Positions 2,624 to 42,550 of a stretch of DNA of 43,303 nt are shown piece by piece. How positions within the stretch are numbered: the first letter of the stretch is position 1; each line of letters starts with the position of its first letter. Made by a program: the position numbers and the translations under genes. The notes beneath the pieces were generated by a model. The model did not search any database, had not been told where the DNA came from, and saw only the letters and a list, made by a program, of their open reading frames with translations. This stretch comes from Candidatus Magasanikiibacteriota bacterium (GTDB lineage: Bacteria; Patescibacteriota; Patescibacteriia; Magasanikbacterales; UBA10146): contig JACRFU010000062.1 in assembly GCA_016212585.1 (NCBI GenBank), positions 1 through 43,303 on the forward strand. The letters run 5' to 3'.

Positions 2624-3241
2624 CTAAATGACTCGCGCAATAACACGCGTAGGTGCGCTGTCTGTTTCAAATTTGGCAGGCAAGGCATATACTTCAAATG
2701 CTTCAACACCCAAAAGCGCGTTTAAATGCGTGAGATTTTCAATGAGTAAAATTTCTTTTTCTAAAAATAATTTATGAATCGGAAATGGCGAATCATCGGG
2801 ACCGGGAGTGTCTAATCCGACCATTTTTACACCGTGGTCAATGAACGAAAGCGCGCACCCGCGTGTCATACGAGGAAAATCAGTGTAATACTCCGGCGCG
2901 CCAAACTTTTCCGACCAGCCGGTCAAGCACAACACAATACTCCCTTGCGAAATTTTTACCACACTCGCCACGGTTTCATCAATCACCGCTTTGCCGCGCG
3001 CGTCAATCAAAATATCTTGTCCTATCAACCTCTCAATCGGTATTTCAGAAAGTTTTCGTCCTCCTTTTACCATATGCATCGGTCCGTCTATATGCGTGCC
3101 TACATGCATGCCAGTTCGCACTTCATGATCCGCAAACTTGTCTTTTTCAATATTCGCAATCTGTTGTAATTGCGGTACAGCATCCCCCGGATAAACAGGC
3201 ATACGCGTGGTAAAGGTATGCGTGAGATCAATATAATGCAT
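2624..3241 (-). CDS. Cyclase-family protein (kynurenine formamidase-like, PF04199-type)
   Basis: 205 aa. N-terminus is MHYIDLTHTFTTRMPVYPGD, with HVGTHIDGPMHM and GLDTPGPD motifs typical of the putative cyclase / arylformamidase fold. Confidence 0.7.
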   Translation of the reverse strand: MHYIDLTHTFTTRMPVYPGDAVPQLQQIANIEKDKFADHEVRTGMHVGTHIDGPMHMVKGGRKLSEIPIERLIGQDILIDARGKAVIDETVASVVKISQGSIVLCLTGWSEKFGAPEYYTDFPRMTRGCALSFIDHGVKMVGLDTPGPDDSPFPIHKLFLEKEILLIENLTHLNALLGVEAFEVYALPAKFETDSAPTRVIARVI

Positions 3242-3435
3242 AACATTTTACTTCTTGTAATTATACTTTACTAAATATATTCTGTAAATGATGGCGCAAT
3301 CAAAAAACACGCCGTGACCAAAGCATGTTTTTTGATTATCTTTTATTTTTTATTCCCCAGATATTCTTTCGGCCAGTTGCCGATCAGCATCTGTAACTGG
3401 AGTAAATTTGTAGATAAACCTCGCTGACATACTAT

Positions 3436-3595
3436 GGGACTGTCGCCGAATGCGCTTTTGTAGCAAAATTTCTGAATTTTGAGATAGAATTGTTGAATAA
3501 ATTTTGAGGTTTAACAGCAGTTAAGCCGAAAAATTTTGAAACGATTTTGACCGAAATTTGCCAATGAAGGAGAAATGCTATTGGGGGACAAGTCT
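3436..3595 (+). mobile_element. Family A MITE, copy 3 (subfamily A2, right terminus degenerate)
   Basis: GGGACTGTCGCCGAATGCGCTTTTGTAGC...TTGAGGTTTAACAGCAGTTAAGCCGAAAAATTTTGAAACG... The right end is decayed to GCTATTGGGGGACAAGTCT. It starts 1 nt after the secY stop codon. Confidence 0.8.
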
Positions 3596-3596
3596 A

Positions 3597-4871
3597 TTAA
3601 TATATCTCGTAATCGTGCATAGAAACACGAGCCTCTACCTGCTGGACAATTTCAATGACCACCGCCACCACAATTAAAAGCGAAGTTCCGCCGATTGCCA
3701 AAGAAGTACTGCCTGCAAATTGGCGCAAAGTCAACGGTAAAACCGCGATTGCGCCCAAAAACAACGAGCCTGCAAGTAAAATGCGATTCATAATATAGGT
3801 GAGATATTCCGCGGTCAGATGGCCCGGACGAATACCGGGAATAAACCCGCCTTGTTTTTGCAAATTTTCCGCGATTTTTTGAGGTTGAAACACAATAGCC
3901 GCGTAAAAATACGTAAACACCACCACCAGAAAAAAATATACCACGGCGTAAAAAATCTGATTGTTAAACAAACTGATCGTTGACGCGGCCGCGTTGCGCA
4001 ACCATGGCGCGCTCGCGTGCGCAAAAAATTGCGCGATCATGCTCGGAAACAAAATCAAAGAAATCGCGAAAATAATCGGAATTACGCCTGCCATATTAAC
4101 GCGCAATGGCAAGTGTGACTGCGTGCCGCCGTAGGATTTGCCGCCATGAATATGCCGCGCGTACGATACCGGTATATTGCGCTGTCCTTCAGTAATAAAT
4201 ACCACGCCGATAATGGTAAAGATTGCAACGCCCACAAACAAAATCATATTCAACAGCTGGCTTGAGTCATACGTCAAAAGTGTCTGTTGAAGCCTGCCCG
4301 GCAAACCGGAAATAATACCGGCAAAAATAATCAATGAAATGCCGTTGCCGATTTTACGCTCGGAGATAAGTTCTCCAATCCACATAAGAAACATACAACC
4401 CGCGGTAATGGTGATCATAGAGGTGACCAAGCGCATAACGCTTAAATCCGTAATAACACCGCGAGCGGAAGCGCGCAGAAGCATAATGGTGCCGTATCCC
4501 TGTAAAATTGCCAAAGGCACGGTTGCGTAACGAGTATATTGATTAATTTTTTGCTGGCCTTGTTCCCCTTCTTTGGAAAGCGCGTCAAGCGAAGGAATTA
4601 CCATACCCAACAACTGAAAAATAATTGATGCGGTAATGTATGGTCCCACGCCAAGCATAATAACAGAAAAATTTTGCAAAGTGCCTCCGGAAAACACATT
4701 GACCAAGCCCAAAATCTGATTGGATTGAAAAAAACGGCGCAATGCGATAACATCTACGCCAGGAATGGGAATATGCGCGAGTAATCGGAAAATCACGAGC
4801 ATCCCTATGACAAATAAAACATCGCGTCGCAAATCTTTGATTTTCCAAATGTGTCCTAACCGTTCAAACAT
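3597..4871 (-). CDS. secY: Preprotein translocase subunit SecY
   Basis: 424 aa multi-pass membrane protein at the end of the spc cluster, with typical SecY sequence (..FSGGTLQNFSVIMLGVGPYITASII..). Confidence 0.95.
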   Translation of the reverse strand: MFERLGHIWKIKDLRRDVLFVIGMLVIFRLLAHIPIPGVDVIALRRFFQSNQILGLVNVFSGGTLQNFSVIMLGVGPYITASIIFQLLGMVIPSLDALSKEGEQGQQKINQYTRYATVPLAILQGYGTIMLLRASARGVITDLSVMRLVTSMITITAGCMFLMWIGELISERKIGNGISLIIFAGIISGLPGRLQQTLLTYDSSQLLNMILFVGVAIFTIIGVVFITEGQRNIPVSYARHIHGGKSYGGTQSHLPLRVNMAGVIPIIFAISLILFPSMIAQFFAHASAPWLRNAAASTISLFNNQIFYAVVYFFLVVVFTYFYAAIVFQPQKIAENLQKQGGFIPGIRPGHLTAEYLTYIMNRILLAGSLFLGAIAVLPLTLRQFAGSTSLAIGGTSLLIVVAVVIEIVQQVEARVSMHDYEIY

Positions 4872-8412: not shown

Positions 8413-8573
8413 GGGTCTGTCGCCGCATGCGCTTTTGTAATGAAACGCGCAGATTTCGAGACAAAATTGTTGAATAAATTTTGAGGTTTAATAATTTTTA
8501 AGCTGAAAAATTTTGAAATAATTTTGTCCGAAAGATGCGCGTTGCAATCAAAATGGCATTCGGCGACAGACCC
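8413..8573 (+). mobile_element. Family A MITE, full copy 4 (161 bp) between rplN and rplX
   Basis: GGGTCTGTCGCCGCATGC...GCATTCGGCGACAGACCC. It begins 3 nt after the rplN stop and ends 11 nt before the rplX ATG. Confidence 0.9.
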
Positions 8574-8948: not shown

Positions 8949-8960
8949 ATTCGTGTTTAG

Positions 8961-9083
8961 TAGGACTTACGCCTTTGGCCAATTTCTTCGTCAAAGCCTG
9001 CGCTTCTCGCTCGTCGTAGATATACTACGGCTTGCTCCGATGCTCGGCTTTTCCTTGAACTTGTCTCAAAGGCGTAAGTCCTA
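8961..9083 (+). mobile_element. Family B MITE, copy 1 (123 bp) between rpsQ and rplN
   Basis: Perfect 17-bp TIR TAGGACTTACGCCTTTG / CAAAGGCGTAAGTCCTA, flanked by a direct 5-bp repeat TTTAG (8956-8960 and 9084-9088). Confidence 0.9.
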
Positions 9084-9084
9084 T

Positions 9085-9959: not shown

Positions 9960-9970
9960 ATTATGTGGTA

Positions 9971-10093
9971 TATGACCTACGCATTTGTCCAATTTCTTCG
10001 TCAAAGCCTGCGCTTCTCACTCGTCGTAGGTATACTACGGCTTGCTCCGATGCTCGGCTTTTCCTTGAACTTGTCTCAAATGCGTAGGTCATG
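9971..10093 (+). mobile_element. Family B MITE, copy 2 (123 bp) between rpsC and rplP
   Basis: TIR TATGACCTACGCATTTG / CAAATGCGTAGGTCATG. The interior is nearly identical to copy 1. Flanks are TGGTA / TGATA (4 of 5 match). The rpsC stop codon TGA (10089-10091) lies inside the element terminus. Confidence 0.88.
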
Positions 10094-12325: not shown

Positions 12326-12487
12326 GGGTCTGTCGCCGAATGCGCTTTTGAAACGAAATGCGCAGATTTCGAGACAAAATTATTGAATAAATTTTGAGGT
12401 TTAATTGCAAATTAAGCTGAAAAATTTTGAAACAATTATGGCCGAACTATGCATATTGCAGTCAAAATGGCATTCGGCGACAGACCC
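12326..12487 (+). mobile_element. Family A MITE, full copy 5 (162 bp) between rplW and rplB
   Basis: GGGTCTGTCGCCGAATGC...GCATTCGGCGACAGACCC. Flanking 5-mers are CATAG (12321-12325, which contains the rplB start codon) and CATAT (12488-12492). Confidence 0.9.
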
Positions 12488-17483: not shown

Positions 17484-17537
17484 GGGTTTGTCGCCGAATG
17501 CCATTTTGACTGCAAAAGCGCATTCAGCGACAGACCC
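17484..17537 (-). mobile_element. Family A mini-derivative (54 bp, both termini, interior deleted), copy 6
   Basis: GGGTTTGTCGCCGAATGCCATTTTGACTGCAAAAGCGCATTCAGCGACAGACCC, flanked by a perfect direct repeat ATAAT (17479-17483 and 17538-17542). Confidence 0.85.
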
Positions 17538-32124: not shown

Positions 32125-32204
32125 GAGTCTGCCGCCGAATGCTATGCCCGTAACAAAATGTACGTATGCGCATTGCAGTCAAAATTGCATTCGGTGGCAG
32201 ATCC
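32125..32204 (+). mobile_element. Family A internally deleted derivative (80 bp), copy 7
   Basis: GAGTCTGCCGCCGAATGCTATGCCCGTAACAAAATG joined to TACGTATGCGCATTGCAGTCAAAATTGCATTCGGTGGCAGATCC. Flanked by a perfect direct repeat ATTAT (32120-32124 and 32205-32209). Confidence 0.8.
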
Positions 32205-32287: not shown

Positions 32288-32953
32288 TTACGCGGATGGC
32301 GCGTCCAAAGCAGTTGAATCTGCTTCTTGCTTAAAAGCTCCGCGCAATAGATCACACAGATACCGGCGGGCATGGCCGTGGTCAAGCCGCCAGCTTTCAA
32401 GCAACGCGTAGAGCACATGCATGGTTTCCAGACGATCACTGATCAGTGTCCGATGAGGATGATTATCATGGATATCTCCAACGCAATCACCAACCACCAG
32501 TGCACGATCGAATTTTCGTGTCTGACGATTGTAAAGTTGAAAAATCCATCCATGCGGCAATGGAGACACTCTTATCTCGTCGATATAAACACGCAAAGTC
32601 AAGTTGAGAGATGCCTTGACAAACATGCTCATATCACGCACTCGCGCGATAGTCCTCACTGTTGTATCAAAAAGATACACTGCGGTCGATGCTCTTTGCT
32701 CACCATATAATGACTCGTCGAAATTAATAAGGTGGATACCAAGCTGAATGCAATTCGCTGGATCCGCAAGATCAATCGCGTCGGCGAGCATCTCATAAAG
32801 AAACACGTCGTGAGATACATCATGCGCTCTTTCGCAAGAGGTCAGGTATCCCGCTACAATAGGAAGCACCGCGCGCCAAGACATATAATGAACATCTCCA
32901 AGATGTTGAAGGTGTTGAGTTGTTTCAAGGAGCAATAGAAGTTTGCTATCCAT
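32288..32953 (-). CDS. Hypothetical protein (221 aa), His/Asp-rich, no recognisable domain
   Basis: Start placed at MDSKLLLLLE, preceded by GGGAGG 5 nt upstream. Looks GC-richer than neighbours by eye. Bracketed by family A remnants. Confidence 0.65.
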   Translation of the reverse strand: MDSKLLLLLETTQHLQHLGDVHYMSWRAVLPIVAGYLTSCERAHDVSHDVFLYEMLADAIDLADPANCIQLGIHLINFDESLYGEQRASTAVYLFDTTVRTIARVRDMSMFVKASLNLTLRVYIDEIRVSPLPHGWIFQLYNRQTRKFDRALVVGDCVGDIHDNHPHRTLISDRLETMHVLYALLESWRLDHGHARRYLCDLLRGAFKQEADSTALDAPSA

Positions 32954-32964
32954 CTTAACCTCCC

Positions 32965-33053
32965 ACAAAATGTGGTTGAATGATACACTGAGACGAAAAA
33001 TTTTGAAACAACTATGGCCGAACTATGTCAAAATGGCATTCGACGACAGACAC
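32965..33053 (+). repeat. Family A partial copy 8 (right half, left terminus missing)
   Basis: ..GAAAAATTTTGAAACAACTATGGCCGAACTATG-TCAAAATGGCATTCGACGACAGACAC matches the right half of copy 5. Confidence 0.75.
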
Positions 33054-34367: not shown

Positions 34368-34661
34368 TTACGCCTTTCGCACATATCCGTGGCACACATC
34401 CACAAGAATCTTATCACCATCTTTGAACACTTTAGTGTCATGTTTAGTGCCAATTACACATGGCTTATTGAGCTCACGAGCAACAATTGCCGACTCGTTT
34501 TTTTCAAAGTGCTTTTTCACAAACATTCGCGCATTTTTGCCTGTTATAATTTTTTGTGTTTCAGAAAAATGCAATGAGTAACGTTTACGCTCTCGTAATT
34601 CTTTGCGTGATATATTCACGCGCCAGGTCTGAATCAACGCGCGCGCTTCGCTCAGCGCCAA
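34368..34661 (-). pseudogene. Remnant of a PEP-utilising mobile (swivel) domain gene lacking the phospho-His
   Basis: SAIVARELNKPCVIGTKHDTKVFKDGDKILVDV parallels [34 protein letters not shown] of the 38734-40167 protein. The GGxTSH segment and the whole N-terminal region are missing. Confidence 0.6.
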
Positions 34662-34708: not shown

Positions 34709-35278
34709 TTAATGTATAAACATCGCGTCGCCGAAAGAGAAAAATTTATAGCCGTATTTTTTTGCTTCTTCGTAGGACGTCAAAACGCGCTCACGGAGCG
34801 CAAACGCGGACACAAGCATGAGCAATGTTGACTTGGGCAGATGAAAGTTGGTAATGAGCGCGTCCACAATACGAAACTCGAAAACTCCCCCGTCATGCAC
34901 CGCTTTGCCGACAATGCCTTTTATCCCCTCTTGAAATTCAACTACTACACCCTCTTTGAGTTTATGTCCGGGTTTGCCAAGTGCTTCCCACACACACGAA
35001 TCCGCGCCCATACTCACCGGCTTTAACAAAAAAATTTCAACGCCTGATTTTGTATTGCCTTGCAGGCAGCCATTGAGCCTGGATCTAAATACTTTGATGT
35101 TGTTGAGCACCAACACATCTCCGGCGCGCATTAGTGCCGTAATTTCAAAAAATTTCCGATGTACCGTCTCGCCTGTTTTACGATCTAACACCAACAATTT
35201 GCACGCGTCGCGCTTGGCTTGCGGCTCTTGGGCAATAAATTCGTGGGGTAAAAAATAATCAAAATCCGAGGTGAGCAT
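34709..35278 (-). pseudogene. queA: queA (S-adenosylmethionine:tRNA ribosyltransferase-isomerase) with an in-frame internal deletion of ~150 aa
   Basis: 189 aa. The N-terminus [25 protein letters not shown] and C-terminus [22 protein letters not shown]...[10 protein letters not shown] are canonical QueA. The central part (PLPPYI, AAPTAGLHF) is absent; bacterial QueA is about 340 aa. Confidence 0.7.
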
Positions 35279-35287
35279 AATCGTACA

Positions 35288-36749
35288 CTATTTCAACTTT
35301 TTTACCCATCCATGGTTTGCGTTCACCTCAACTATATCGCCATCACGCAACACTTCCGTCGCAATCTTGGTACCGATAATGCTTGGAATGCCAAGCTCAC
35401 GGGAAACAATCGCCGCGTGAGAAGTAATGCCTCCTTCACTAGTTACTATTGCCGCGGCTTTTTTCATTGCAGGGGACTGTCGCCGAATGCGCTTTTGTAA
35501 CGAAATTTCCAGATTTCTGGACACAATTGTTGAATACATTTTGAGGTTTAACAGGAGTTAAGCCGAAAAATGTTGAAACAATTTTGGATGAAATAGGGGA
35601 ATTGCAGTCAAAATGGCATTCGGCGACAGTCCCTGCAGTGATATAATCCGGCCGCGTCATGACCGCTACCAAAATATCACCCTGTTTAACTTTGTCGGCT
35701 TCCGTGGCCGAATTAAGTATGCGCACAGGGCCAATTGCTCTGCCGGTTGAAGCGGATAACCCCCTAAAATCATCAACTTGGTCATGTGGTTTTTGCCCCA
35801 AAACCATTTTTTTCAATTCTTCCAAGCACGCGCTTGGTACCACCTCAAACGCTTCTCCGACCACAATAAATCCGGATTTTTTTCTACCTTGCAATTCTTT
35901 TCGCGACGGTTCTCTTTTTGACATAATATCTTTAATTTCTACCGGATAGGCAAATTTCAACTCATCCAATGTATAATCCGTGCGCCGGACAACTTCTTTC
36001 AAAATAGTACAACCCATATCAATGTTAAAATAGGTTGCTTTTTTACACTTATCTTGCCACCATGTAAAATCTTCCGAGATCTGTATGAGCGCGCGCAGAA
36101 GCGCGGACAATTTTACTTTTTTAAACAGCGCTTGTTTTTTTATTCTATTCAAGCGCGGCGTTTCATACAAATGTTTCAATTCCTTCTTTAAATCTTTGCC
36201 GCTTTTTTTCCACGCTCTGATTTCTTCTTGAAAATGCTTCACACTCAACACCTGCGCTGTGATATAATTATTCTTGCTCCAATACGAGCGCTTTTGATAG
36301 GCGACTAAATTATCCTTGGAAACGCCCACTATAATTTTAAGCAGTTCTATTTCCGCCTGATTGCTAAATGATTGATGCACGGGCGCAGTGGCAATGCTAA
36401 AAATTTCAGTAAATTGTGATTCTTTAAATCTCGCGGAATTTTTTGAGCCATATAATTCCTTGCGCAGTAGCGCGCTGATAATCTCGTCCGTGCCCAAAGC
36501 AAAATGATCAATCAAAATTGTTGAAGTGGCGCAATTGATGAATAACGTATAGGTGGTATTCCACACTTCAAGAAGTTGCGCATCGGAACATTTTTTTAAA
36601 TCAATCGCAGGGAATGTTTTCCAAAAATATCGTTCATATATCTGTTCATCTTTTTTCCATTTCTTGAGCAATTTTGTTGAAAGCCGAGGGTCTTTTTTGG
36701 CAAGCTCAACAAACCGTTTTGCCGCACACCGTATATCACCCATTTCCAA
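35288..36749 (-). pseudogene. PEP-utilising-enzyme-like gene (paralog of 38734-40167) split by family A copy 9
   Basis: The upstream part ends ..ILVAVMTRPDYITA and the downstream part starts [28 protein letters not shown]. The intact paralog has ..[42 protein letters not shown], so the 166-nt insertion (161-bp element plus 5-bp duplication) sits exactly between A and M. Confidence 0.85.
35473..35633 (+). mobile_element. Family A MITE, full copy 9 (161 bp, subfamily A2) inside a coding sequence
   Basis: GGGACTGTCGCCGAATGC...GCATTCGGCGACAGTCCC, flanked by a perfect 5-bp direct repeat TGCAG (35468-35472 and 35634-35638). Confidence 0.92.
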
Positions 36750-36768
36750 ATACCAATCTGCAAATATA

Positions 36769-37506
36769 TTATCTCAAATACCGCGCGATATTCCTATTAT
36801 GCTCGTCAAGCGTGTGAGCATAATACATTTTTCCGTCACGACCGCTTATAAAATACCAATACGCATTTGAGGTTGGATTGATAGACGCATTGATAGACGC
36901 CAAACTCGGATTATTGATAGGCCCCGCGGGCAACCCCTTTTCTTTATAAGTGCCTCTGCTTGAATCAACTTGAAGCGGCATTCCAACGCGTAAACGCCGC
37001 CACAAAATATCGGCAATGAGCGCGCGATCCTCCGCCGTCTTGCCTTCCGCCTCCACCAGCGAGGCCACGGTGAGCACTTCAAAAATAGTTGTATGTTGTT
37101 CTTTAATTTTTGCACGCGCCTCCGAGGATAATTTTTCATCCATCTCGCTCAATACTTTTTCAACTATATTGCGCACGGCGGTGTCTTTAAAAAAACGATA
37201 GGTGTCGGGAAAAAAATATCCTTCTATTCCTGCGTCTGCCGGAGCGTCCGCAAATAATCCGGGGAAAAGTACGCGATAACGCGACGCTACAGATCCAACC
37301 GCACGCGCCCATACTTCCACAGAAGGCACTAAACCTCTCTCCACCAGTAATGCGCCATATTCTTTCAAAGTACGCCCCTCTACAAACGTAATGGTCGTTT
37401 CTTCCCGTGGCACGATTACACGTTCTGACCGTCCATAGAAAAAAGCAATCGCCATCACGAGGGCGAAAATACAAAAAGCAAAGGTTGTTTTTATGAACCG
37501 GCTCAT
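36769..37506 (-). CDS. mltG: Endolytic murein transglycosylase MltG (YceG-like)
   Basis: N-terminal TM segment, EGYFFPDTYRF, ASLVEAEG, GLPAGPINNPSLASI and YFISGRDGKMYYAHTLDEHN. Confidence 0.88.
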   Translation of the reverse strand: MSRFIKTTFAFCIFALVMAIAFFYGRSERVIVPREETTITFVEGRTLKEYGALLVERGLVPSVEVWARAVGSVASRYRVLFPGLFADAPADAGIEGYFFPDTYRFFKDTAVRNIVEKVLSEMDEKLSSEARAKIKEQHTTIFEVLTVASLVEAEGKTAEDRALIADILWRRLRVGMPLQVDSSRGTYKEKGLPAGPINNPSLASINASINPTSNAYWYFISGRDGKMYYAHTLDEHNRNIARYLR

Positions 37507-38733: not shown

Positions 38734-40167
38734 TCAACAAACTTTTTGAGCAATCCCCTGCGCGGGGCTTACTTCCACCAAATCATCATCTTTGAATAAC
38801 GTAGTAGCAATCTTGGTACCCACAAGGCACGGAATACCGAGCTCACGGCTCACTATAGCCGCATGGGATGTTAAACCACCCGTATCAGTAATGACGGCGC
38901 AGGCTTTTTTCATGGCAAAAATATATTCCGGACTCGTCATCGGCGCGACTAAAATTTCTCCGTCTCGGAACATTTCTACCTTCAAGGGATCCAAAAGAAT
39001 ACGGATTTTCCCGCGCACGGTGCCATGCGTACCCTTACTCGCAACAATTCCTCTCACTTCTTTCACACCGATTGCCGCTTCCTCCATACTACTATAGGTA
39101 TTCCAAACATACTCGGTTTTTTCAGCGTTGAGCTCTTTACACTCATGGAAAAATTGTACCCCGAACCCCTTGGCTCGCTCCATTAATTTTGCATGTAAAT
39201 CCTTGCCTTTGATAATCTCCGTTATTTCTTGATGCCATAAATTATGTAGCTCATCAAATGCATACTCGTATCGTCGCCCAACCTCTTGAACTAATGCATC
39301 AGTATAATGCAAAATAATAAAAATATATTTCTTGCGCTCATCTTGCCAACCAATACCATAGCTAATAGCTTCTGCAATATCCATCAGTTCTGCGGGTACA
39401 TTAAACTGTTTCTGGATTGCTAATTTGCGCGCTTTTGTTTCTTCTATTTTTTTCTTAATCTCAATCACCATCTCCGGCTTCACTTCTTTTTTTCGCTCCA
39501 CAAAAAATTCAAGCGGCAAGACGTGCGTCCCGGCATAACTATTTTTAAGCCAAAAAAACTGCTGCTGATGGTTTGCCAAATCCGTTGTTTGGTTCAAAGC
39601 GATTTCTTCTTCCTGATAAAACGACAAACGAGTTGGAGCAGTCAAAATTTCAAGAACTTCAGTACTATTCCGCTCATCCGTAATATATTTTTTTATCCGT
39701 TCAGTGAGATAATGAGTTGAACCGTAATTGGCAAGTTCAGGAACCGAACCGGTAATCCAAAATTTGATATAATACTTTAATAAATCCGTCCACAAAATCA
39801 ACAGTTCCGCGTCTGTTATTTCTGCAAGTTTAGTCTTGCCGATTTTTTTTTCAATATCCTGAATTCTTTTAACATCGTCAAGCCATTCCCTATATATCTT
39901 TTCCCGCGATACCCTCGGCAACAGGTATTTCAAAAATATTCTTTCACCGGTCGCGTTGACATCCTGGGCGTTATTAATCCAAAAACTGCGGCCATTTTTA
40001 AACAACCATAGTGTTTCCGGCCAATTCTCGCCATACCTTTCACGAAAATGTTTATAATGCACCTCTACAAAGGTAGAACTATATAAAAATTTCCCGGGGA
40101 TGGGACCCCACCGAAAGATATTGCTTTGTGGATCAAATGGTAATTTAATAATGGAGTTTTTTACCAT
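38734..40167 (-). CDS. PEP-utilising-enzyme mobile-domain protein (C-terminal phospho-His swivel domain, N-terminal region of unknown function)
   Basis: 477 aa. The C-terminus [48 protein letters not shown] is the PF00391-type domain. I saw no ATP-grasp GGKxxN motif in the N-terminal 380 aa. Confidence 0.75.
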   Translation of the reverse strand: MVKNSIIKLPFDPQSNIFRWGPIPGKFLYSSTFVEVHYKHFRERYGENWPETLWLFKNGRSFWINNAQDVNATGERIFLKYLLPRVSREKIYREWLDDVKRIQDIEKKIGKTKLAEITDAELLILWTDLLKYYIKFWITGSVPELANYGSTHYLTERIKKYITDERNSTEVLEILTAPTRLSFYQEEEIALNQTTDLANHQQQFFWLKNSYAGTHVLPLEFFVERKKEVKPEMVIEIKKKIEETKARKLAIQKQFNVPAELMDIAEAISYGIGWQDERKKYIFIILHYTDALVQEVGRRYEYAFDELHNLWHQEITEIIKGKDLHAKLMERAKGFGVQFFHECKELNAEKTEYVWNTYSSMEEAAIGVKEVRGIVASKGTHGTVRGKIRILLDPLKVEMFRDGEILVAPMTSPEYIFAMKKACAVITDTGGLTSHAAIVSRELGIPCLVGTKIATTLFKDDDLVEVSPAQGIAQKVC

Positions 40168-40275
40168 AGCCTTTAACTTGCTCTACATATTCAACGAGCT
40201 CCGAACGAGTTACATTTTTTCCTTTAAGATGATGATAAATTGGATTATAGGTATAGGCCATATTCCAAAACAAGT

Positions 40276-40815: not shown

Positions 40816-40824
40816 ATGTGTTTA

Positions 40825-40947
40825 TCGGACCTACGCATTTGAGACAAGTTCGAGGAAAAGCCGAGCATCGGAGCAAGCCGTAATATACCTACGACGAGCG
40901 AGAAGCGCAGGCTTTGACGAAGAAATTGGCCAAATACGTAGGTCCTA
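40825..40947 (-). mobile_element. Family B MITE, copy 3 (123 bp, inverted relative to copies 1-2) between gpmI and the PAP2 gene
   Basis: GGACCTACGCATTTG...CAAATACGTAGGTCC. The interior is the reverse complement of copies 1 and 2. TTTA lies on both flanks (40821-40824 and 40948-40951); the right one overlaps the gpmI stop codon. Confidence 0.88.
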
Positions 40948-40948
40948 T

Positions 40949-42550
40949 TTAAATAAGTGACTGACCGGTCATTTCCGGCGGCTGTTCAAGCCCCATAATT
41001 TTTAAAATGGTCGGCGCGACATCCGCGAGCATCCCCACCGGCGCGGACAAACTCAAATCCCCTCCCATGACGTCGCCACCGGGGCCAGTCTGCCCTTCCC
41101 ATTGTTTGCCGATAATAATAAGCGGCACCGGATAGGTGCTATGCTCTTTATCAATCCCCCCTGTTTTCAAATTGATCATTTCTTCCACATTGCCGTGATC
41201 CGCGGTAAACACTGCCACATATCCTTTGGCAAGCGCCAAATCCGTAATCTGTCCGAGCGCTTTGTCTATTACCTCCAGGCTCTTTACTGCCGCGGGCAGG
41301 TTTCCCGTGTGCCCCACCATATCCGCGTTGGCAAAATTAATCGCAACAAGTCCATACGCGCCCTTTTCAATCGCTTTCAATGCTTCTTTGGCAATTTCCG
41401 GCGCGGACATTTCCGGCTTTTGATCATAACCGGACACATGCGGCGAGGGAATAATCATTCGCTCCTCCCCGGGGAACGGTTCTTCCACGGTGCCATTCAA
41501 AAAAAATGTAATGTGCGCGTATTTTTCCGTTTCCGCCACATGAAATTGTGATAATCCAGCGTTTGCAACAACTTCCGCCAAACAATTGATAATCACATCC
41601 GGCGGGAACACCACCTCAACAGGCAAACTTTTTTCAAACTCCGCCATGGTAACAAACAATAAATTTTTGTATTCACGCGCCGTGAACTTATCAAAACTGG
41701 GAAGCGCGAACGCTTTGGTCAATTCGCGCGCGCGGTCCGGACGAAAATTAAAAAATACCACCGCGTCGTTGTCTTCCACCGTTGCCACCGGCTTGCCGCC
41801 ATCGGTAATGGTTACGGGAGCAAACTGCTCATCATATACTTCTTTTGCATACGAAGCTTTGATAGCTTCCGCGGGGTCTTTTGCTTGTTCTCCCTTGCCT
41901 TCCGCAATGGCGCGATATGTTTTTTCTATACGGTCCCATCGATTATCTCTGTCCAAAGCATAAAAACGACCCGCCAAACTGGCAACGCGGCCAACTCCGT
42001 ATTCTTTGATTTTTGCCTGCAACCTCTCCAAAGACGCGCCGCCTCCGTTAAACAATGCGTCGCGGCCGTCCAAAAACATGTGGATGTAGACTTCTTTAAT
42101 TTTTTGTTCCGCGGCAAATTTTAAAAGCGCGTACAAATGCTCCTCTGCAGAGTGTACGTTGCCGTTGCTCACCATGCCCATCAAATGCAAACGAGATTTA
42201 TTTTTTTTGACATGCGCGGCGGCCTTGAGAAGTGTTTCGTTTTTATCAAACGCGCCGCTGGAAATAGACTGATTGATGCGCAACAATGTTTGATAATATA
42301 CGCGTCCTGCGCCAATGTTCAAATGTCCTACCTCGGAATTGCCCATCTGCCCCCACTCCAACCCCACCTCATTACCGGAAGCAATGATAGTCATGGCAGG
42401 GTAAGTTTTGAGCAATCGGTTAAACACCGGCAATTTGGCCTGTGTAATGGCGTTGCCGTCCGAGGGCGGCGCAACGCCCCAGCCGTCGCAAATAATGAGA
42501 ACAACAGGCTGAATTTGCGCTTTATTTGGCTGATTTGTATCTGTTGGCAT
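40949..42550 (-). CDS. gpmI: 2,3-bisphosphoglycerate-independent phosphoglycerate mutase
   Basis: 533 aa with ICDGWG, SEVGHLNIGAGR and ADHGN motifs. Length is typical of iPGM. Confidence 0.93.
   Translation of the reverse strand: MPTDTNQPNKAQIQPVVLIICDGWGVAPPSDGNAITQAKLPVFNRLLKTYPAMTIIASGNEVGLEWGQMGNSEVGHLNIGAGRVYYQTLLRINQSISSGAFDKNETLLKAAAHVKKNKSRLHLMGMVSNGNVHSAEEHLYALLKFAAEQKIKEVYIHMFLDGRDALFNGGGASLERLQAKIKEYGVGRVASLAGRFYALDRDNRWDRIEKTYRAIAEGKGEQAKDPAEAIKASYAKEVYDEQFAPVTITDGGKPVATVEDNDAVVFFNFRPDRARELTKAFALPSFDKFTAREYKNLLFVTMAEFEKSLPVEVVFPPDVIINCLAEVVANAGLSQFHVAETEKYAHITFFLNGTVEEPFPGEERMIIPSPHVSGYDQKPEMSAPEIAKEALKAIEKGAYGLVAINFANADMVGHTGNLPAAVKSLEVIDKALGQITDLALAKGYVAVFTADHGNVEEMINLKTGGIDKEHSTYPVPLIIIGKQWEGQTGPGGDVMGGDLSLSAPVGMLADVAPTILKIMGLEQPPEMTGQSLI

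Follow-up and report, generated by a model that had tools for sequence, protein, structure and literature searches.

Correia elements duplicate TA at their targets, and processing by RNase III, a Correia feature, has been shown for them. The Correia/NEMIS elements of Neisseria are MITEs of small size (~100–160 nt), non-coding and multicopy, with TIRs and a hairpin formed by the whole element (PMC10969869). The family described here resembles Correia- and ERIC-type elements, which are operon-embedded hairpins, mostly intergenic and co-transcribed, with an occasional strain-specific gene disruption (PMC10969869), whereas its sequence is different, its hosts are Patescibacteria and its target duplication consists of 5 AT-rich base pairs. 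It shares 5-bp AT-rich target duplications and stable predicted RNA hairpins with TIMEs, which are ~262 bp long with 38-bp Tn3-type IRs and 5-bp AT-rich repeats, usually single-copy and found mostly in Pseudomonas (PMC4133298). Unlike TIMEs, the present element is 161 nt long and of high copy number, and its TIR measures 18 nt (~27 nt with two mismatches) in place of the 38-bp Tn3 IR. The Tn3 end sequence begins with GGGGTCTGACGC, and the outer TIR bases of the present family, GGGTCTG, resemble this end.

Rickettsia palindromic elements (RPEs; Ogata 2000/2002), as summarised in PMC10969869, are ~150 nt long and lie in protein-coding genes of reduced genomes. Our locus is similar to what that summary describes in combining a palindromic mobile element of about this length, a protein-coding gene and a reduced genome. 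RPEs are, in the same summary, in frame and translated with their host gene, whereas 166 nt of added DNA shift the frame here, leading to a stop at 35439, and this copy is the sole intragenic one of 36. Translational bypass elements (T4 gene 60; mitochondrial ‘byp’) are hairpin inserts of 27–55 nt with matching flanking codons, and in T4 gene 60 a stop codon directly follows the take-off codon. Our locus likewise has a hairpin insert in a coding sequence between matching codons, although the GCA match is a trivial result of the duplication; the insert is 166 nt rather than 27–55 nt long, the codon after the take-off site is GGG and not a stop, and nothing at the locus is evidence of bypass.

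Structure of the insertion

The window, that is, the whole stretch of DNA analysed here, comprises 43,303 nt of a contig from a Candidatus Magasanikiibacteriota bacterium. The mobile element occupies 35473–35633 (161 nt), inside a minus-strand PF00391 gene spanning 35288–36749 (hereafter PEP2). Its left TIR (35473–35490, plus strand) reads GGGACTGTCGCCGAATGC, with 0 mismatches to the search pattern, and its right TIR (35616–35633, minus strand) is the exact reverse complement of GGGACTGTCGCCGAATGC; both are 18 nt long and perfect. The 5-bp target-site duplication is also perfect, with TGCAG at 35468–35472 and again at 35634–35638 on the plus strand. The orientation defined as forward for the family lies on the plus strand, antisense to the host gene. 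Together with one TGCAG, the added DNA amounts to 166 nt (3 × 55 + 1).

The minus-strand ORF from 36749 to 35439 encodes 436 aa, composed of 372 native codons (35634–36749, with a TTG/ATG start at approximately family position 66) and a read-through tail of 64 element-derived and out-of-frame codons (35439–35633) that ends at the stop codon 35439–35441. The C-terminal remainder (35288–35467, minus strand) encodes 59 aa from an ATG at 35467 and contains the catalytic-His motif. A further ATG at 35539, within the element, opens an 83-aa ORF in the same frame as this remainder; in formal terms, PEP2 could still yield a downstream piece from the native ATG after the element or from the one inside it. 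When the element and one TGCAG were taken out, the sequence was rejoined as ...TAT ATC ACT GCA / ATG AAA AAA..., giving a 431-aa protein with a single complete PF00391 match (E 9e-25, profile positions 2–72 of 72) that was colinear with the intact paralog at 38734–40167. The complete PF00391 domain with its GG(x)TSH phospho-His motif exists only after this excision. A preliminary description of the same DNA had already reported the insert of 166 nt, not a multiple of 3, the reading of the N-terminal part through the element to a stop at 35439, and the restoration of a frame colinear with the paralog; our recount reproduced its coordinates and all of its arithmetic.

In mRNA sense, the element is predicted to fold into a single long hairpin (−74.2 kcal/mol, z = −9), whose base lies 5 nt ahead of the downstream ATG (35467). 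A promoter and terminator scan of 35200–36900 gave counts no higher than those of shuffled sequences. Rfam covariance models yielded no match at the gathering score across the whole window, and the interpretation of the element as an intron or ribozyme was rejected because of this result.

The position of the insertion within the protein differs from what was first proposed. Contrary to the preliminary description, it does not fall at a domain boundary: in the restored protein, the PF00391 match begins with residue 355, the phosphohistidine domain covers residues 327–428 according to alignment with solved PEP synthases (8a8e, residues 380–481), and the insertion point follows residue 372, at a place 45 residues inside this ~100-residue domain and 16 residues ahead of the catalytic His of GGITSH. 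The insertion bisects the phosphohistidine domain. The downstream piece had been described as a 60-aa swivel domain keeping its own ATG at 35467; the ATG is indeed native, corresponding to a conserved internal Met (the paralog also reads A-MKKA), but the piece has 59 aa and represents only about the C-terminal half of the domain.

Distribution of the element

The 18-nt TIR matched 14 sites in the window with at most 3 mismatches, against 0.01 expected, and the element at 35473 belongs to a repeat family rather than being a chance palindrome. At least nine copies of this family are present in the 43 kb. Further full-length copies were located at 2461–2622, at 8413–8573 between rplN (L14) and rplX (L24), and at 12326–12487 between rplW (L23) and rplB (L2), so that each of these two spacers of the ribosomal-protein operon holds one copy. 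The copy at 8413 starts 3 nt past one stop codon and ends 11 nt ahead of the next start codon; the ORF fusion that appeared when it was excised in silico was an artefact, because the rplN stop codon was removed together with the copy. A fourth full-length copy, just downstream of secY (3436 to ~3596), has a degenerate right end and the same left-end variant (GGGA...) as the copy at 35473. Two copies are internally deleted, namely one of 54 nt that consists of the two ends only (17484–17537, perfect ATAAT duplication) and one of 80 nt (32125–32204, perfect ATTAT duplication), the latter missing from L001, the related contig described below. TIR matches also identified a partial copy with the right end only (32971–33053) and a copy of opposite orientation that is cut by the window start (1–138). 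In three older copies of the window, the duplication is no longer intact.

The same ends were found in many Patescibacteria MAGs, among the matches listed from a scan of one genome per species, and the hosts among these matches include Kerfeld-, Magasanik-, Falkow- and Azambacteria as well as unclassified Patescibacteria MAGs. In one MAG (JAZDNE01), many contigs terminate within a family copy; this MAG and one of Kerfeldbacteria (MHKF01) are among those rich in copies. The scan of the genome collection used a 17-mer over 596 Gb, for which ~70 chance matches are expected; lone matches from Nocardia, Bradyrhizobium and other GC-rich genomes were ascribed to chance, their number being as predicted for a 17-mer. 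The family end is GGGNCTGTCGCCGAATGC, with 5-bp duplications that are nearly all AT-rich (ATTTA, TAAAT, ATAAT and similar) and that were perfect in 19 of the 36 paired copies from the window and other genomes. Twenty-three full-length copies, each 161–164 nt long and devoid of coding capacity of their own, were aligned. Across the family the 18-nt TIR is almost invariant, extending to ~27 nt if two mismatches are allowed, and where its position 4 varies (T, A or G) the opposite end always holds the complementary base. In its size, TIRs, fixed-length duplication and dispersed polymorphic copies, the element is a MITE by the structural criteria used for prokaryotes. A literature search for MITEs in CPR/Patescibacteria returned nothing relevant and, as far as can be told, the family is common in these bacteria and apparently undescribed.

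The 23 aligned copies share a common hairpin of 45 pairs, in which 94.9% of cells are paired and 21 of the 45 pairs show compensatory changes, both partners having changed. A result as good as this was reached in 0 of 500 shuffles, and slid controls were far lower. G-U combinations outnumbered A-C combinations 56 to 9, a ratio biased by prediction on that strand and by shared ancestry; this asymmetry hints at a strand-specific RNA.

Of the 36 paired copies, that at 35473 alone breaks up a long ORF, and it does so at a target, TGCAG, that departs from the usual AT-rich sites, from which we infer that intragenic copies are normally purged. No autonomous partner with the same TIRs was found among 105 loci, and no transposase was detected in or beside the copies by ORF clustering over 56 low-GC loci, inspection of solo TIRs and Pfam searches of adjacent ORFs. 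The ORFs near copies in this search were housekeeping genes and one IS110-family gene only. The sole long stretch bounded by TIRs (3195–4742 of locus L105) was rejected as an autonomous element, as it represents a family copy in which a transposase gene of the IS110 family is nested.

Comparison with relatives

The homolog search gave 2859 matches, of which 120 were listed, 41 were aligned and four were read directly. The best homolog (P0004) is 92% identical to PEP2 and contiguous over the insertion site. Its contig (L001) is syntenic with positions 28.4–41.1 kb of the window at ~90% DNA identity, and reads GATTATATCGCCGCAATGAAA at the position of the element; this is an empty site with a single target, CCGCA on the gene strand. 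The empty site was also present in two further metagenome contigs of the L001 lineage (L111 and L113). All 41 aligned homologs and the four read directly (P0004 among them) are contiguous at the insertion site, and no insert was seen there in the 120 listed of the 2859 homologs, all of them single uninterrupted gene calls. The possibility that orthologs carry the same 166-nt segment at the same site, which would have argued against a recent neutral disruption, is thus contradicted by every homolog inspected. The scan of metagenomes for an empty site returned the sister lineage only, and none of the window’s own lineage. Two independent Logan contigs from run SRR12113407, one for each junction, have the same flanking genes, agree fully with the window wherever their flanks were compared, and stop ~29–31 nt into the element. 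Since they run from the flanks into the element, both junctions are real in an independent assembly. With the TIRs, the target-site duplication, the multicopy family and the empty site in a relative, the clean MITE insertion proposed in the preliminary description is borne out, including the empty-site comparison that it had recommended.

Members of the protein family typically have ~490–500 aa with a C-terminal phosphohistidine ‘swivel’ domain. In the window, the paralog PEP1 (38734–40167, minus strand, 477 aa) is intact and unbroken across the site (EYIFAMKKACAVITDTGGLTSH), whereas a third, PEP3 (34368–34661, minus strand), is a 97-aa remnant of what is a 582-aa protein in L001, resulting from deletions of ~1.3 kb and 217 nt. 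Other neighbouring genes have also been reduced relative to L001. An in-frame deletion of 525 nt left queA with 189 aa compared with 366 aa in L001, and an HD-domain gene was lost; short microhomologies mark both deletion junctions. The low dN/dS in the remnants implies that these neighbouring deletions are recent too.

Between the window and L001, PEP2 had a dN/dS of 0.10 at a dS of 0.39 (308 comparable codons; 61 synonymous and 28 non-synonymous changes), with values of 0.101 and 0.093 upstream and downstream of the insertion, respectively, and of 0.05–0.19 in the neighbour genes. A dN/dS of 0.10 means that PEP2 was under constraint during most of the period after the two lineages diverged. 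The disruption is therefore recent, as the preliminary description had argued from the near-perfect termini; the perfect TIRs and target-site duplication and the equally low dN/dS on both sides agree with this dating.

Signs of relaxed constraint are present on the window branch. When the 26 amino acid differences between the window and L001 were polarised with 41 family members, the rarer residue was that of the window at 17 positions and that of L001 at 6. Derived changes in the window’s PEP2 hit three 100%-conserved columns (I129S, R235C and C401S), C401S being located in the downstream piece. When the differences were crudely divided on the assumption that both branches had equal synonymous change, omega came to ~0.19 for the window branch and 0.07 for the L001 branch, and the relaxed (neutral) phase would occupy no more than a minor share of the window branch (~10–13%). 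PEP2 departs from highly conserved columns at 5 positions compared with 0–9 in intact family members; given that this count is inside the family range, the residue changes may be regarded as moderate evidence for decay.

Only 4 of 44 genes in this genome use a Shine–Dalgarno sequence, and with so rare a use its absence at the downstream ATG carries no information. Initiation here probably depends on open A/U-rich leaders, which the downstream ATG does not have.

Interpretation of the locus

The reading that we consider likely is that a MITE inserted into one of three tandem paralogs and that PEP2 is now a recent pseudogene, whose loss is tolerated. The element would have entered at codon 372/373 by cut-or-copy transposition, presumably mobilised by a transposase supplied in trans. 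A Tn3-like enzyme is a candidate in view of the AT-rich duplication of 5 bp and the terminal GGGTCTG, although the defining 38-bp IR is absent. The 166 extra bases shift the frame, so that the N-terminal 372 residues gain a 64-residue nonsense tail, while the last 59 residues with the catalytic His are separated from the first half of the domain. The predicted mRNA hairpin, which is very stable, ends 5 nt ahead of the downstream ATG. Because the frame is shifted and the domain split, PEP2 has probably lost its function, and this loss would be tolerable with an intact PEP1 in a neighbourhood that is visibly shedding genes.

The preliminary description had left the choice between recent inactivation and expression as two polypeptides, and we strongly prefer the former. 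Loss of the N-terminal part, substitutions at invariant sites and the fresh deletions of the neighbours all favour inactivation, while the second half of that proposal is weakened by the split domain, C401S, the truncation and the neighbouring deletions. It would require that the N-terminal 372 residues (with or without the tail) and a 59- or 83-aa piece reassemble into a working protein. There is a native ATG just past the element and a second, in-frame one inside it, the downstream dN/dS (0.093) is as low as that upstream, and the stop of the N-terminal ORF at 35439 lies only 28 nt beyond the downstream ATG, so that ribosomes would open the hairpin on their way. The low dN/dS, however, records history before the insertion, and the split falls 45 residues into a ~100-residue fold rather than between domains; C401S alters a family-invariant Cys in the downstream piece, a hairpin of −74 kcal/mol has its base 5 nt from the ATG, and a split gene was found in no relative among the 120 listed of the 2859 homologs. 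We regard two functional polypeptides as very improbable. Even less credible, to the point of being extremely improbable, is a single polypeptide made by skipping or reading through the element, whether by a +1 frameshift (e.g., on GAAAAAAG), a GCA–GCA hop or RNA excision. Both frames are open over 35539–35439, the take-off and landing codons are identical owing to the duplication (GCA ... GCA/ATG) and the element is a strong hairpin, but 166 nt is not a multiple of three, the take-off codon is followed by GGG rather than by a stop as in T4 gene 60, Rfam has no match in the window, other copies of the family avoid ORFs, and a frameshift would place ~62 foreign residues within the catalytic domain of the product.

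Some doubt attaches instead to whether the MITE was the inactivating lesion. PEP2 could already have been dead through 5′ truncation, the MITE being a neutral passenger. The gene lacks the conserved N-terminal ~63 residues of its family and begins at about position 66, directly after the yceG stop, without the family-invariant F25, P29 and R45. The same truncation junction occurs in L001, which further lost ~50 nt and a frameshifting 131 nt. Nevertheless, after this shared truncation the 308 codons still show a dN/dS of 0.10 over a dS of 0.39, which disfavours an earlier death, and shorter family members of 402–441 aa exist in databases; we therefore consider this explanation rather unlikely. 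An assembly artefact, in which a repeat copy was misplaced or is present in a minor fraction of the population only, would be suggested by the multicopy nature of the element, by the assembly breaks that occur at its copies and by the start of the window, which falls within one of them. Against this, the duplication is exact, excision restores the frame exactly, the Logan contigs enter the element for ~29–31 nt at both junctions from identical flanks, and the metagenome scan returned no empty-site sequence of the window type, all of which makes an artefact highly improbable.

It was also considered that the element might be a domesticated structured-RNA module acting as an RNA-processing or insulating site, with the PEP2 copy uncoupling two expressed pieces. 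The basis for this proposal, which we rate as decidedly unlikely, lies in the compensatory hairpin changes across several CPR classes and in copies placed bases from stop and start codons of the ribosomal operon. If it were true, the PEP2 copy would split expression rather than simply kill the gene. Under the preferred reading of inactivation by a MITE, the event itself would be of an ordinary kind, in which a redundant paralog is inactivated by a mobile element, and would represent gene decay and not a new mode of expression.

The family is of practical relevance in that it fragments Patescibacteria assemblies, many contigs ending in copies, and could serve as a marker for assembly repair and strain typing. 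The unusually strong covariation of its hairpin makes it a candidate for the study of transposition and RNA processing in unculturable organisms. The locus itself is of value because it offers a dated view of a CPR genome undergoing reduction. The 15.9-kb L001 locus overlaps only ~13 kb of the window, and within these ~13 kb the comparison revealed three MITE insertions (from two families), four deletions of microhomology type and one interrupted gene, with an additional partial MITE copy in a non-aligning stretch.

Covariation and genomic context of the hairpin element

In an alignment of 23 full-length copies of the MITE family, drawn from the window and from other loci, the whole element was recovered as a covarying hairpin, with compensatory changes at 21 of the 45 pairs; the fourth position of the terminal inverted repeat and its partner always co-varied. 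On one strand, G-U cells outnumbered A-C cells (56 and 9, respectively), although this count is biased by the structure-prediction procedure, and the excess hints that selection may act on an RNA or single-strand form of the element. Two full-length hairpin elements lie within the essential ribosomal-protein operon, between rplN and rplX (8413–8573) and between rplW and rplB (12326–12487), where stop and start codons are located 3–11 nt from the elements. These copies must be co-transcribed and tolerated.

Occurrence in other genomes

A MITE copy in Falkowbacteria contig MFFY01000052.1 (L105, 3195–4742) contained a nested IS110-family transposase gene (PF01548 and PF02371), and the palindromes of the family may be targets of IS110-type elements. 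Many contigs of the metagenome-assembled genome (MAG) JAZDNE01 terminate approximately 120–140 nt inside an element copy (loci L007, L014, L016, L029, L042, L052, L063, L064, L067, L069, L085, L091, L095, L102, L106, and L108), and the start of the window is likewise an assembly break inside a copy; the MITE family is a major cause of such breaks. Several full copies of this element of Patescibacteria, with perfect duplications, were also found in CAYMCJ01 (L004, L012, and L019), a MAG labeled ‘uncultured Gammaproteobacteria’. Either the labeling or binning of this MAG is questionable, or the host range of the element is wider.

Gene losses in the window and its relative

Comparison with L001, the syntenic contig of a relative with ~90% DNA identity, revealed further losses. 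The queA gene (34709–35278) encodes 189 aa in the window and 366 aa in the relative, the difference being accounted for by an in-frame internal deletion of 525 nt with GAGTT microhomology at its junction (34882/34883); the dN/dS of the remnant was 0.195. Two deletions, one of ~1.29 kb and the other of 217 nt, reduced the third PF00391 paralog (34368–34661) to 97 aa, compared with 582 aa in L001; because the dN/dS of the remnant is still 0.07, this loss is recent. An HD-domain gene (208 aa; L001 720–1346) was nearly all deleted from the window (~40160–40225), with ~500 nt missing and TTGA microhomology. In the sister lineage, the counterpart of the MITE-split PF00391 gene carries extra deletions of ~50 nt and 131 nt (L001 4755–4960), the latter frameshifting, and retains a single called ORF of only 308 aa; its degradation is independent of that in the window.

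Second repeat family and other features

Repeats of approximately 125–130 nt, 91–95% identical to one another, were present at 8956–9084, 9970–10090, and 40824–40952, the last of which is not present in L001. With inverted ends of their own (AGGACTTACGCCTTTG...CAAAGGCGTAAGTCCT), they probably represent a second MITE family. Between MITE remnants at 32125–32204 and 32971–33053, a 226-aa ORF (32288–32968) without a Pfam match showed only 27% identity to the syntenically equivalent ORF of L001, while the flanking DNA was ~87–91% identical; the gene is either hypervariable or replaced. Among all 44 plausible genes in the window, just four starts were preceded by a Shine-Dalgarno-like motif, even a weak one, with A/T-rich leaders found in their place. 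Finally, a 12-nt tandem duplication (GCGTCTATCAAT ×2; 36877–36900, minus strand) in the 3′ part of yceG encodes SINASINP in the YceG/MltG C-terminal region.
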